This document shows, one piece after another, positions 5,071 through 7,048 of a stretch of DNA of 42,620 bases. Origin of the DNA: a virus; the IMG/VR virus record IMGVR_UViG_3300036719_002804; one strand, given 5' to 3'. Numbering within the stretch: the stretch's first letter is position 1; every line of letters starts with the position of its first letter. The position numbers were made by a program, and so were the translations under genes. The notes under the pieces were generated by a model, which was not told the DNA's origin, ran no database searches, and was given only the letters and a program-made list of their open reading frames with translations.

Positions 5071-6530
5071 GTTTGTTCGGTGCTGATTTCTACCCCACTC
5101 CACCGGATGTAGCGGCCGAGATGCTCGACCCGCTCGACCTGCGGGGCAAGACTGTGCTGGAACCCAGCGCCGGCAGCGGGAACCTGGTGCGCGAGTGCCT
5201 GGAGCGTGGCGCGGCGGAGGTGCTCTGGTGCGAGCCAGAGAAGCAGCTGCGCAGCATTCTCTACGGCATGAACGGCCAGCACGTACATCTGCTGAATGAC
5301 TTCCTGAAGGTGCAGGCCAACTTCGTCAGCCACGTGGATCTGATCGTGATGAACCCACCGTTCTCGGCGGACGAGGCGCACATCCTGCACGCCTGGGAGA
5401 TCGCCCCGCCGGGGTGCGAGATCGTGGCGCTGGCGAACTGGAACACAGTCTGCGATGAGTACGTGCACCGGCTCACCCAGCGCACCGGCTCAGGCCTGAA
5501 GAAACAGCTGGCTTATCTGGTCAACGCCTACGGCAGCCGGGAGAACCTGGGCGAGTGCTTCAGCACCGCCGAGCGTCCCACCAAGGTGAGCGTCGGGCTG
5601 GTGCGGCTCACCAAGCCTGGCCAACGTGTAAGCGGCGCTGATGAGTTCGAGGGGTTCTACCTGGGCCCTGACGACATCGAGGCCCAGGGCGAGGGGCTGA
5701 TCCCCTATCGCCGCAGCCGGGACATCGTGAACCGCTACGTGGAAGCGTGCCGGATCTTCGATGAGCAGGTGGAAGCCGGCACCAGGCTGCGCGGTGTGCT
5801 CGATGGATTCTTTGGCCAGGAGCTGGGCCTGCAGGTGACCGTCGAAGGCGCACCGGTGACCCGCAACCGGTTCAGGAAGGATCTACAGAAGGCGGCATTG
5901 AAACACGTTTTCGCGGAGTTCCTGCCGGCGCAGCTGGCCACCAGTCAGCTGGCGAAGGACATCAACGCTTTCGTGGAGAAGCAGAGCCGGATCCCGTTCA
6001 CCGAGCGGAACATCTACCGGATGCTGCAGATCGTCGCCGGCACGCAAGAGGCCAGGGTGGATCGTGCGGTGGAGCAGGCGATTGACAGCCTGACCCGCCA
6101 CACCGCCGAGAACCGGTATGGCGTGGAGGGTTGGGTGACCAACTCGGGTTACATGCTGAACCGGCGGTTCATCCGGGCGTATATGGGTGAGCTGAGCTGG
6201 TCAGGCAAGGGCGTGAACGTGAAGTCCTACGGCCGCCAAGCGGATGAGATCCAGGACCTGATCAAGGCGCTGTGCTTCATCACTGGCAGGAAGTACGCCG
6301 AGGTGGGCCAACCCACCAAGCCTGCTGATGGTGTGTTCTGGCCTGGTGAGTGGTATGAATGGGGGTTCTTCCGGTTCCGTGCATACAAGAAGGGCACGGT
6401 GCACTTCGAGTTCAAGGACGAGGAAGTCTGGGCGGCAGTGAATGCGAGGTATGCGCGAATCAAGGGCCAGGTGCTGCCGGAGCAGCGCCGCCGGCCGAAG
6501 CAGCGCAGGCGGCAGGAGGTAACGACATGA
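5067..6530 (+). CDS. N6-adenine DNA methyltransferase (motif I then motif IV, with a long C-terminal domain)
   Basis: FYPTP, VLEPSAGSGNL (SAM-binding motif I) and VMNPPF (catalytic motif IV). No restriction partner is nearby, so it is an orphan methyltransferase. Confidence 0.8.
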   Translation: MSLFGADFYPTPPDVAAEMLDPLDLRGKTVLEPSAGSGNLVRECLERGAAEVLWCEPEKQLRSILYGMNGQHVHLLNDFLKVQANFVSHVDLIVMNPPFSADEAHILHAWEIAPPGCEIVALANWNTVCDEYVHRLTQRTGSGLKKQLAYLVNAYGSRENLGECFSTAERPTKVSVGLVRLTKPGQRVSGADEFEGFYLGPDDIEAQGEGLIPYRRSRDIVNRYVEACRIFDEQVEAGTRLRGVLDGFFGQELGLQVTVEGAPVTRNRFRKDLQKAALKHVFAEFLPAQLATSQLAKDINAFVEKQSRIPFTERNIYRMLQIVAGTQEARVDRAVEQAIDSLTRHTAENRYGVEGWVTNSGYMLNRRFIRAYMGELSWSGKGVNVKSYGRQADEIQDLIKALCFITGRKYAEVGQPTKPADGVFWPGEWYEWGFFRFRAYKKGTVHFEFKDEEVWAAVNARYARIKGQVLPEQRRRPKQRRRQEVTT

Positions 6531-7048
6531 GCAGCACGACCAACCGCATTCCGCTGGCCCAGGCTCTAAATATCGCCAGCAGCATCGTGACTGAACTAGG
6601 CCCGTATTGCGATCAGATTGAAATTGCCGGCAGCATTCGACGCCAGCGGCCTACCATCGGAGATATTGAAATTGTTTGCATCCCGGCGAACTACGATGCG
6701 TCACCTCTATTCCGTTCTGGCATTGCCCTGGTAGTGGAGCAGTGGGAAAAAATCAGGGGCGAGCTTCCGTGCCGCTACACGCAGCGATTGCATCCCAGCG
6801 GGATGAAAGTGGACCTGTTCATGCCAGATCCTCGCGGGTTCGGCCTCCAACTGGCGATCCGCACCGGCTCCGCCGCCTGGAGCCATCGGGTACTGGCCCG
6901 CGCATGGGTGTGCGCTGGCTATCGCTCTGACGGAGGCCTGCTGCGCGACTTCGCTGGCCGAGTCGTTCCCACCACCACAGAGCGGCAACTGTTCGAGTTA
7001 ATCGGCCTGCCGTGGGTGGAGCCAATGAACCGAGAGGTGGCGGCATGA
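6527..7048 (+). CDS. Minimal family X DNA polymerase / Pol beta-like nucleotidyltransferase (173 aa)
   Basis: AGSIRRQRPTIGDIEIVCIP (cf. Pol X GSxRRGxxxxxDxDxL), KVDLFM (third carboxylate strand), AIRTGSAAWSHRVLARAWVCAGY (cf. YFTGS...) and the C-terminal TERQLFELIGLPWVEPMNRE (cf. Pol X sEeeiFxxLGLxYIpPexRe). AGGAGG at 6514..6519. ATGA overlap. Confidence 0.65.
   Translation: MSSTTNRIPLAQALNIASSIVTELGPYCDQIEIAGSIRRQRPTIGDIEIVCIPANYDASPLFRSGIALVVEQWEKIRGELPCRYTQRLHPSGMKVDLFMPDPRGFGLQLAIRTGSAAWSHRVLARAWVCAGYRSDGGLLRDFAGRVVPTTTERQLFELIGLPWVEPMNREVAA

Follow-up and report, generated by a model that had tools for sequence, protein, structure and literature searches.

Does the open reading frame (ORF) at 6527..7048 on the plus strand of the IMG/VR virus record IMGVR_UViG_3300036719_002804 encode a DNA polymerase of family X, and if so, what would an enzyme of 173 amino acids do in a phage genome that has no replicative polymerase of its own? 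We analysed the whole stretch of 42,620 nucleotides (hereafter called the window) together with related loci of viral and cellular origin, and the gene is referred to below as mini Pol X. An initial annotation, made from the letters of the sequence, had described this ORF as a minimal Pol X, and both the ORF and all the motifs quoted for it are indeed present, namely GSIRRQRPTIGDIEIV (residues 35-50), VDLF (95-98), TGS (113-115) and ERQLFELIGLPWVEPMNRE (152-170). Judging from sequence comparison and a predicted structure, we consider it somewhat probable (roughly 0.55) that the product of this ORF is a true minimal nucleotidyltransferase of family X and is catalytically active, and that it would carry out gap-filling or repair synthesis on phage DNA.

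A family X palm and thumb in 173 residues

The homology of mini Pol X to the palm and thumb of family X polymerases extends along the entire protein, and the similarity is far beyond chance. The best match among PDB sequences in phmmer is the PolX of Thermus thermophilus (E = 4.9e-11), of which residues 156-315, exactly the palm plus the thumb, are aligned to residues 6-170 of the query. All phmmer matches with E <= 0.001 in the PDB belong to family X polymerases, Pol lambda being the next at about 1e-4, and a profile built from 21 homologues matches Thermus PolX (1.7e-10), Pol lambda (4e-8) and Pol beta (6e-5), the whole protein being spanned in all of them. Moreover, the Pfam thumb model DNA_pol_B_thumb (PF14791) covers residues 113-170 (profile positions 6-63 of 63) with 30.2 bits against a cutoff of 25, and the NCBIfam PolX equivalog gives a partial match at model positions 148-315. 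When an AlphaFold2 model of the protein (pLDDT 86.6, pTM 0.83) was compared with the PDB using Foldseek, the top 50 matches were all Pol lambda or Pol beta, with E-values around 1e-10 (from 1.7e-10), query-normalised TM-scores of 0.61-0.69 and 180-197 aligned columns. In a viral structure library the PolXs of giant viruses rank best, one of them having 174 amino acids, and O174L of African swine fever virus (ASFV) is placed 17th. By alignment to Thermus PolX and Pol lambda, the palm (nucleotidyltransferase) subdomain lies at residues ~6-100 (6542..6826, plus strand), and the thumb (nascent base-pair binding) subdomain, as delimited by PF14791, lies at residues 113-170 (6863..7036, plus strand) and holds T113-G114-S115, helix N and the C-terminal GLPWVEP..RE motif. 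The palm and thumb signatures that had been read from the sequence are thus borne out, and so is the reported absence of the 8-kDa/lyase, fingers and PHP domains, because mini Pol X begins where the palm of Thermus PolX starts (about residue 153) and has no Pfam match to the 8-kDa or fingers domains.

The initial annotation had also proposed a comparison with Pol beta, ASFV Pol X and the MNT/KNT nucleotidyltransferases, in view of the possibility that the ORF is a non-polymerase nucleotidyltransferase. MNT/KNT proteins (such as the HEPN-MNT antitoxins) share with mini Pol X the hG[GS]...D-x-[DE] palm of the Pol-beta superfamily and the small size, and D-x-E is frequent among them. However, they have no PolX thumb and are partnered by a HEPN protein, whereas the thumb is present in mini Pol X and no HEPN neighbour was found using Pfam, PHROGs and PADLOC. 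In the comparison as we ran it, the sequence, profile and fold matches are all to family X and cover both palm and thumb, and there is no MNT/KNT structure in the top 50 Foldseek matches in the PDB. An assignment to MNT/KNT or to another non-polymerase nucleotidyltransferase is ruled out by the thumb, which scores above the Pfam cutoff, together with the fold matches to Pol lambda and Pol beta.

For a comparison of the active site, 112 related loci (given L numbers below) provided 91 distinct sequences of the family, which are 43-100% identical to the window protein. The triphosphate-binding motif G35-S36-x-R38-R39 (6629-6643, plus strand), which reads G35-S36-I37-R38-R39 in mini Pol X, aligns with GSARR of Thermus PolX and GSYRR of Pol lambda, and the predicted metal ligands D46 (6662-6664), E48 (6668-6670) and D96 (6812-6814), on the same strand, align with the D-x-D pair and the third Asp of these two enzymes. 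G35, S36, R39, D46, E48, T113 and G114 are each found in 91/91 sequences, and D96, R38, R112 and L123 each in 90/91. The observation that the metal-ligand pair is D-I-E instead of D-x-D was correct, with D46 and E48 shared by the whole family, and because of this invariance the D-x-E pair is best read as a selected and fixed hallmark of the mini Pol X family, not as decay or a lesion. In addition, the palm contains a family-specific motif, G78-x-L-P-C82-x-Y84-T-Q-R87 (6758..6787, plus strand), in which G78, P81, C82, Y84 and R87 are each conserved in 91/91 sequences and which has no counterpart in Thermus PolX, the alignment being gapped there.

The size and layout had been likened to those of ASFV Pol X (O174L, 174 amino acids; PDB 1JAJ, 5HRB), and this likeness holds at the level of architecture. 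The query sequence of ASFV Pol X, confirmed to be identical to PDB 1JAJ, aligns collinearly with the family profile of mini Pol X in hhalign (29-169 of mini Pol X with 32-173 of ASFV Pol X, E = 4.9e-5, probability 68%, 22% identity). Both proteins consist of a palm and a thumb, are of nearly equal length, have the region of the C-terminal motif in common and lack the 8-kDa, fingers, PHP and exonuclease domains. In the alignment, GS-x-RR stands opposite GS-x-RR, D49/D51 opposite D46/E48, D100 opposite D96 and TGP opposite TGS, while the second metal ligand is Asp in ASFV Pol X and Glu in mini Pol X. ASFV Pol X is missing from the phmmer matches of mini Pol X in the PDB, and the nearest solved relative by sequence is the core of bacterial PolX (Thermus thermophilus, PDB 3AU2/3B0X; B. 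subtilis PolX). The Thermus enzyme shares with mini Pol X the palm, the thumb, the catalytic geometry and a Ser at the helix-N site of Pol beta Asn279. However, bacterial PolX has ~570 amino acids with 8-kDa and fingers domains and a C-terminal PHP 3'-5' exonuclease, of which mini Pol X matches residues ~153-315 only, and it has D-x-D and the helix-N Arg where mini Pol X has D-x-E and Leu. Human Pol lambda and Pol beta, the best fold matches, align with mini Pol X in the metal ligands and the triphosphate-binding motif, but their dRP-lyase domain, helix-hairpin-helix fingers and BRCT domain are missing from mini Pol X, their YF pair and helix-N Asn/Arg are replaced, and the palm of mini Pol X is shorter. 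Because bacterial PolX cores, and not ASFV Pol X, come closest in sequence, the minimal layout probably arose by a truncation independent of ASFV Pol X, and a specific common origin with the latter is not supported by the sequence comparison.

An accessory gene in a polymerase-less T7-like genome

Nucleotides 1-127 and 42494-42620 of the window are identical, and a gene for a single-subunit RNA polymerase crosses the junction. Because of this terminal identity, the window is taken to be a circularly permuted complete genome of ~42,493 bp. It has a GC content of 66% and the gene content of a T7-like podovirus, including the RNA polymerase, a T7-type single-stranded DNA-binding protein (SSB), a gp6-like 5'-3' exonuclease, a T7-type terminase, an integrase and an ArdC-like protein. 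Pfam and PHROGs detected neither a DNA polymerase of any family nor a helicase or primase in the window ORFs of at least about 150 amino acids, a Pfam census of large ORFs for polymerase families being limited to the best 25 Pfam families. Likewise, phmmer searches with gp5 (a family A polymerase) and gp4 of T7 and P-SSP7 gave no match in the window, family A being the one polymerase family covered by this local search. The statement that the genome lacks a replicative polymerase thus stands for the complete circular genome as searched with Pfam, PHROGs and T7/P-SSP7 gp5. This lack is an already known trait of this kind of phage and is not peculiar to the window; the cyanopodovirus clade MPP-C has no DNA polymerase and keeps the primase-helicase (PMC9860041).

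The closest cultured relative is the Synechococcus phage S-SRP02, whose host is a freshwater Synechococcus (terminase 62% identity), and the next-closest terminases are those of uncultured marine phages and of the Prochlorococcus P-SCSP1 phages (43% for P-SCSP1). S-SRP02 has nearly the same gene order as the window, integrase included, and no polymerase. The polymerase-less cyanopodoviruses (MPP-C, P-SCSP1; S-SRP02) and the window phage have in common the T7-like structural module, the single-subunit RNA polymerase and the lack of a DNA polymerase gene. The main difference is that mini Pol X is present in the window phage and missing in S-SRP02 and the P-SCSP1 phages; moreover, the primase-helicase is kept in the marine MPP-C phages, whereas none was detected in the window using phmmer with gp4. 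Besides the SSB and the flap endonuclease (FEN)-type exonuclease, the window keeps a RusA-like resolvase (1635-2172) and an NrdR-type Zn-ribbon protein (3092-3655). Its host is probably a high-GC freshwater picocyanobacterium, as judged from the kinship with S-SRP02, the GC content and a related copy of the gene in a metagenome-assembled genome (MAG) of Cyanobium.

Mini Pol X is a horizontally mobile accessory cassette in the DNA-metabolism (middle) operon and not a core replication gene, because it is missing from S-SRP02, occurs at three positions, is shared as a single gene with an otherwise unrelated phage and has a low GC content at third codon positions (GC3). As mapped gene by gene using tblastn, the window and S-SRP02 are collinear save for a 308-amino-acid ORF (2169-3095) and a block at ~4607..7637 on the plus strand, which comprises a methyltransferase gene, mini Pol X and five small ORFs without counterpart in S-SRP02. 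The GC3 of mini Pol X is 0.68, versus 0.83-0.92 in the neighbouring genes. Its position differs among related T7-like phages, in which three different sites are occupied: in L060 and L061 it lies between the Zn-ribbon protein gene and an ORF of 170 amino acids, and in L044 and L066 between ArdC and integrase genes, where it adjoins a homologue of the ArdC-like protein of the window. Furthermore, L037, whose backbone is otherwise unrelated, shows 93% nucleotide identity to the window over 6506-7058 alone, an 86%-identical protein is encoded by a phage that also has genes for RecT and a sigma factor, and a 72%-identical one by another type of phage. L036 contains two tandem full-length paralogues (2758-3270 and 3443-3982), which are 96% and 70% identical to the window protein and both have intact GS, D-I-E and D motifs; the copy in L081 looks frameshifted. 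The 308-amino-acid ORF (2169-3095, plus strand) matches phrog_5931 only, a family of unknown function, has a GC3 of 0.62 and is a probable second recent insertion in the DNA-metabolism region.

The true start of mini Pol X is placed at 6527, because a Shine-Dalgarno sequence, AGGAGGT (6514..6520, plus strand, read off the sequence), lies 6 nt before the ATG and because the homologues begin at an equivalent 'MS.T..R.PL'. The ATG of mini Pol X shares nucleotides with the TGA that ends the methyltransferase gene before it (ATGA, 6527-6530), and the stop codon overlaps the ATG of the following ORF (7045). These overlaps and the close AGGAGGT make mini Pol X one link of a tightly packed chain of ORFs from 5067 to 8423, which is probably translationally coupled. 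The upstream gene (5067..6530, plus strand), with an N6-MTase-like N-terminus and a DUF4942 region, is recognised as a DNA methyltransferase by Pfam, PHROGs and PADLOC, in agreement with the initial annotation, and would be translationally coupled to mini Pol X. Downstream, the ORF list has three small overlapping ORFs in the same operon (7045-7287, 7284-7472 and 7457-7645, plus strand), which have no Pfam or PADLOC match, no counterpart in S-SRP02 by the tblastn map and, for the first ORF only, a partial PHROG match. They are followed by the gene for the T7 gp6-like 5'-3' (FEN-type) exonuclease (7638..8423, plus strand; Pfam 5_3_exonuc_N, E = 9e-13; phrog_107, E = 5e-58), which is 67% identical to its S-SRP02 homologue and is a candidate functional partner of mini Pol X in gap creation and flap removal.

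No partner gene is conserved across 109 loci, and the neighbours are lineage-specific only. They are overwhelmingly genes of DNA transactions, such as primases (PriCT-2, DUF5906, Prim-Pol), DnaB/RepA-type ATPases, the beta clamp and methyltransferases, and the DUF4942 methyltransferase adjoins mini Pol X in L036, L041 and L055 as it does in the window. In a group of freshwater phages, a dATP/dGTP pyrophosphohydrolase gene (MazZ-type, PF04447/PF18909) lies directly upstream or close by (L001-L004, 9600-10004, and other loci of cluster C3), and one is also near mini Pol X in the P0003 contig. A link with Z-genomes (2-aminoadenine) was considered and not retained, as there is no PurZ-type Pfam family in the annotated L001-L004, where many genes carry no annotation. 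In four Mu-like prophage loci of Bacteroidota (L008, L016, L025 and L102), a gene for an Rv2179c-like DEDD 3'-5' exonuclease is immediately upstream, which is a possible polymerase-exonuclease pairing, and in some of these a DUF4406 gene is downstream. Fusions of mini Pol X are rare and involve an HNH nuclease or DUF4326, the latter being a predicted rhodanese-type phosphatase that is often fused to replication or restriction-modification components in the literature; in other fusions, N-terminal winged-helix-like and ASCH-like regions were recognised by eye. A few of the database fusions look real, and the longer 'fused' versions (204-331 amino acids) among our own ORF calls were discarded as spurious in-frame upstream extensions in GC-rich DNA. 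No PADLOC model matches mini Pol X at E <= 0.01, and it was not accepted as a component of a defence system for this reason. Taken together, the neighbourhood fits an enzyme acting on DNA ends, nicks or gaps, without pinning down a pathway.

Several other genes of the window may be mentioned. An internal-virion-type protein of 1316 amino acids (20520-24470, plus strand) weakly resembles PARP/ADP-ribosyltransferases in residues 1095-1164 (E = 7e-5, a match below the Pfam cutoff) and could, from this sequence match, be an ejected ADP-ribosylating effector. For the following ORF of 1144 amino acids (24473-27907, plus strand), which separates the gene of a gp16-like protein from that of the tail fibre, neither Pfam nor PHROGs nor PADLOC gives any match. 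The endolysin combines glucosaminidase and YkuD L,D-transpeptidase domains, and its gene and that of the large terminase (30939-32102 and 32369-34132) are on the minus strand, against the rest of the T7-like module, likewise in S-SRP02. The ArdC-like protein (36692-37780, plus strand) is of the anti-restriction type, with an ArdC-N single-stranded DNA-binding domain and a zincin metallopeptidase domain (MPTase-PolyVal).

Proposed function and competing explanations

Polymerase activity, template dependence, a DNA substrate and the biological role are what we infer for mini Pol X, in the following way. D46, E48 and D96 would hold the metals and S36, R38 and R39 the triphosphate for a two-metal nucleotidyl transfer, with the thumb closing on the nascent base pair. 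The enzyme would bind a 3'-OH at a nick, a short gap or a recessed end of phage DNA and add one or a few templated deoxynucleotides distributively, without proofreading and without a lyase step. Its gaps, of the repair or primer-removal type, might be opened by the gp6-like 5'-3' exonuclease of the phage or by host or defence nucleases, and the host ligase would seal the strand after filling. In this way, a phage that relies on the host replisome would gain its own Pol I-like supply of gap filling. Enzymes of family X fill gaps distributively and are not coupled to a helicase, a property that also counts against the replicative role considered last below.

Some findings speak against such a gap-filling polymerase and have to be set beside the homology. 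The Pfam palm model PF14792 reaches only 16.2 bits, below the cutoff of 25. I111-R112 is aligned opposite the Tyr-Phe pair of Pol lambda (H115-F116 in ASFV Pol X), a pair that in gap-filling PolXs adjoins the incoming nucleotide at its sugar and base. L123 stands opposite the helix-N Arg of Pol lambda, Pol beta and ASFV Pol X (R517, R283 and R127, respectively), which contacts the template and has a strong effect on efficiency and fidelity. S119 is found where Pol lambda has Asn, as in Thermus PolX. Because these differences are fixed in the family, a substrate preference identical to that of the gap-filling PolXs should not be assumed. Mini Pol X is, moreover, merely mildly basic (isoelectric point 8.4 versus 10.0 for ASFV Pol X) and has no helix-hairpin-helix DNA-binding modules. 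ASFV carries its own AP endonuclease and ligase as partners in base-excision repair (BER), whereas the window phage has the FEN-type 5'-3' exonuclease alone; no AP endonuclease, glycosylase or ligase was found in the complete genome using Pfam and PHROGs, so that the phage has no complete BER pathway of its own comparable to the one in ASFV. Finally, a FEN exonuclease is present within 10 kb in just 4 of the 109 loci, and the FEN partnership is therefore not general.

A first alternative concerns the selective role more than the chemistry and is compatible with the same gap filling: mini Pol X may be a real polymerase that has been selected, along with anti-restriction functions such as the adjacent methyltransferase, to undo or bypass DNA damage inflicted by the host, namely nicks and gaps made by defence nucleases, abasic sites left by glycosylases, or DNA that is ADP-ribosylated or otherwise modified. 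The gene behaves like an accessory or anti-defence cassette in its variable position, single-gene exchange and tandem paralogues (L036), its adjacency to the DUF4942 methyltransferase recurs, and ArdC-like anti-restriction genes adjoin it in L044 and L066. The fusion with DUF4326, which is predicted to link ADP-ribose chemistry with replication and restriction-modification components, points in the same direction, as do the fusions to HNH and to the N-terminal region with an ASCH-like motif. On the other hand, the function of DUF4326 is itself merely predicted, anti-restriction neighbours are found in a minority of the loci, and neither a PADLOC match nor a partner gene that is consistent across the 109 loci supports it. 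We therefore regard counter-defence repair as a possible but not a likely explanation of why the gene is kept.

Somewhat more doubtful is a template-independent or non-DNA activity, in which the protein would add tails to DNA ends as a terminal transferase, or else act on RNA 3' ends to repair or extend them. The fixed L123 in place of Arg and I111-R112 in place of Tyr-Phe fall where Pol beta and Pol lambda read the template and the nascent base pair, the 8-kDa and fingers domains that grip DNA are absent, and the Rv2179c-like exonuclease located immediately upstream in four loci belongs to a family described as 3'-5' exoribonucleases. Extension of single-stranded DNA is also known for PolX members such as TdT and Pol mu and for a PolX of Faustovirus (PMC13252658). 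However, mini Pol X has no insertion like the Loop1 of TdT and Pol mu, which replaces the template in those enzymes, and the palm stretch between E48 and D96 is short (47 residues). Furthermore, the thumb is wholly kept and conserved, the best matches are all templated repair polymerases, and no RNA ligase or tRNA-repair gene was found in the window using Pfam and PHROGs.

It is very unlikely that mini Pol X is, like some bacterial PolXs, a catalytically dead derivative, serving in DNA binding or regulation. In bacteria, non-canonical PolXs that have lost polymerase activity are frequent (PMC9226535), mini Pol X has Glu and not Asp as its second metal ligand, and several thumb residues typical of polymerases are replaced. 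Nevertheless, the same survey of prokaryotic PolXs counts Asp/Glu triads as canonical and describes scattered non-acidic replacements in the inactive ones (PMC9226535), whereas in the 91 family sequences the three acidic ligands and GS-x-RR are essentially invariant, which is the opposite of such decay; in addition, non-canonical PolXs work via the PHP exonuclease domain, which is missing here. As for mini Pol X being the missing replicative polymerase in the slot of T7 gene 5, the genome has no other polymerase, the gene is in the DNA-metabolism operon between the SSB and exonuclease genes, and the MPP-C study leaves room for an unrecognised divergent polymerase (PMC9860041), but we reject this as most improbable because the syntenic and equally polymerase-less S-SRP02 lacks the gene, tblastn finds no match in deposited phage genomes with the P-SCSP1 (MPP-C) phages included, the position varies among related T7-like phages, and the low GC3 and the cassette-only match to the unrelated L037 backbone indicate an apparently recent gain of a single gene.

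Distribution and meaning of the family

Mini Pol X belongs to a large family. At least 2,213 homologous clusters were found in a database clustered at 90% identity (E <= 0.001), the best 120 being nearly all of 170-181 amino acids, and some of these clusters are already labelled 'PolX' by the automatic annotation of JGI. When 1.84 billion representatives (50% identity) were searched exhaustively with a hidden Markov model, the number of clusters was 180 for E <= 1e-30 and rose to 3,477 for E <= 1e-10 and to 7,324 for E <= 0.001; most of the best 150 have 157-200 amino acids, and the weaker matches presumably include cellular PolXs. Members of the family are located on 77 IMG/VR viral contigs and in 31 genomes or MAGs (Bacteroidota, Patescibacteria, Verrucomicrobiota, Cyanobium and others), in which integrase genes and genes of Mu-like prophages adjoin them. 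PolX-like folds are also seen in several unnamed viral proteins of 250-575 amino acids in the viral fold library.

Among 50,697 deposited phage genomes, the P-SCSP1 phages included, no match to mini Pol X was found by megablast or tblastn. When a divergent member of the family was used as the query, the sole remote match was MG592671.1:73203-73595 of Vibrio phage 2.275.O, a 349-kb jumbo vibriophage, in a gene annotated as hypothetical (29% identity, E = 5e-4). PHROGs has no family for mini Pol X, and a plasmid collection contains ordinary full-length cellular PolX only. In the literature that we searched, a mini Pol X of phages is nowhere described: the only virus for which a 2022 review on polymerases encoded by phages gives a PolX is ASFV, and no phage PolX is listed there, the survey of prokaryotic PolXs does not mention phages, and a paper of 2026 still names ASFV Pol X as the smallest known DNA polymerase. 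The initial annotation had called the gene unusual, which is right in that no deposited phage genome carries one, but does not hold for metagenomes, where the family is very common (the at least 2,213 clusters above). Mini Pol X thus represents a large and undescribed subfamily within a type of enzyme that is already known, with the tailed phages as its new setting, and it is not categorically new.

Some members of the family are shorter than the 174 amino acids of ASFV Pol X. It is tempting, although rather speculative, to suggest that this abundant and mobile phage family comprises the smallest natural DNA polymerases (157-175 amino acids), derived from a bacterial-type PolX by a truncation independent of ASFV, with a fixed D-x-E and its own set of template contacts, and that together with a phage FEN they might form a two-piece substitute for Pol I in the primer removal and gap repair of polymerase-less T7-like phages. 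Mini Pol X does not solve the replication puzzle of these phages. If it is active, it would bear on how gaps are filled and repaired in T7-like phages that have lost their DNA polymerase, as an optional add-on, and family X would join the repertoire of DNA enzymes of tailed phages. The family would then also be a natural experiment on Glu as the second metal ligand and on the loss of the helix-N arginine, and it would open up an extensive natural collection of polymerase sequences no larger than ASFV Pol X, useful for enzyme engineering and for studying the minimal needs of templated synthesis. If the protein is inactive or acts on another substrate, the family would represent a new functional offshoot of the PolX fold.

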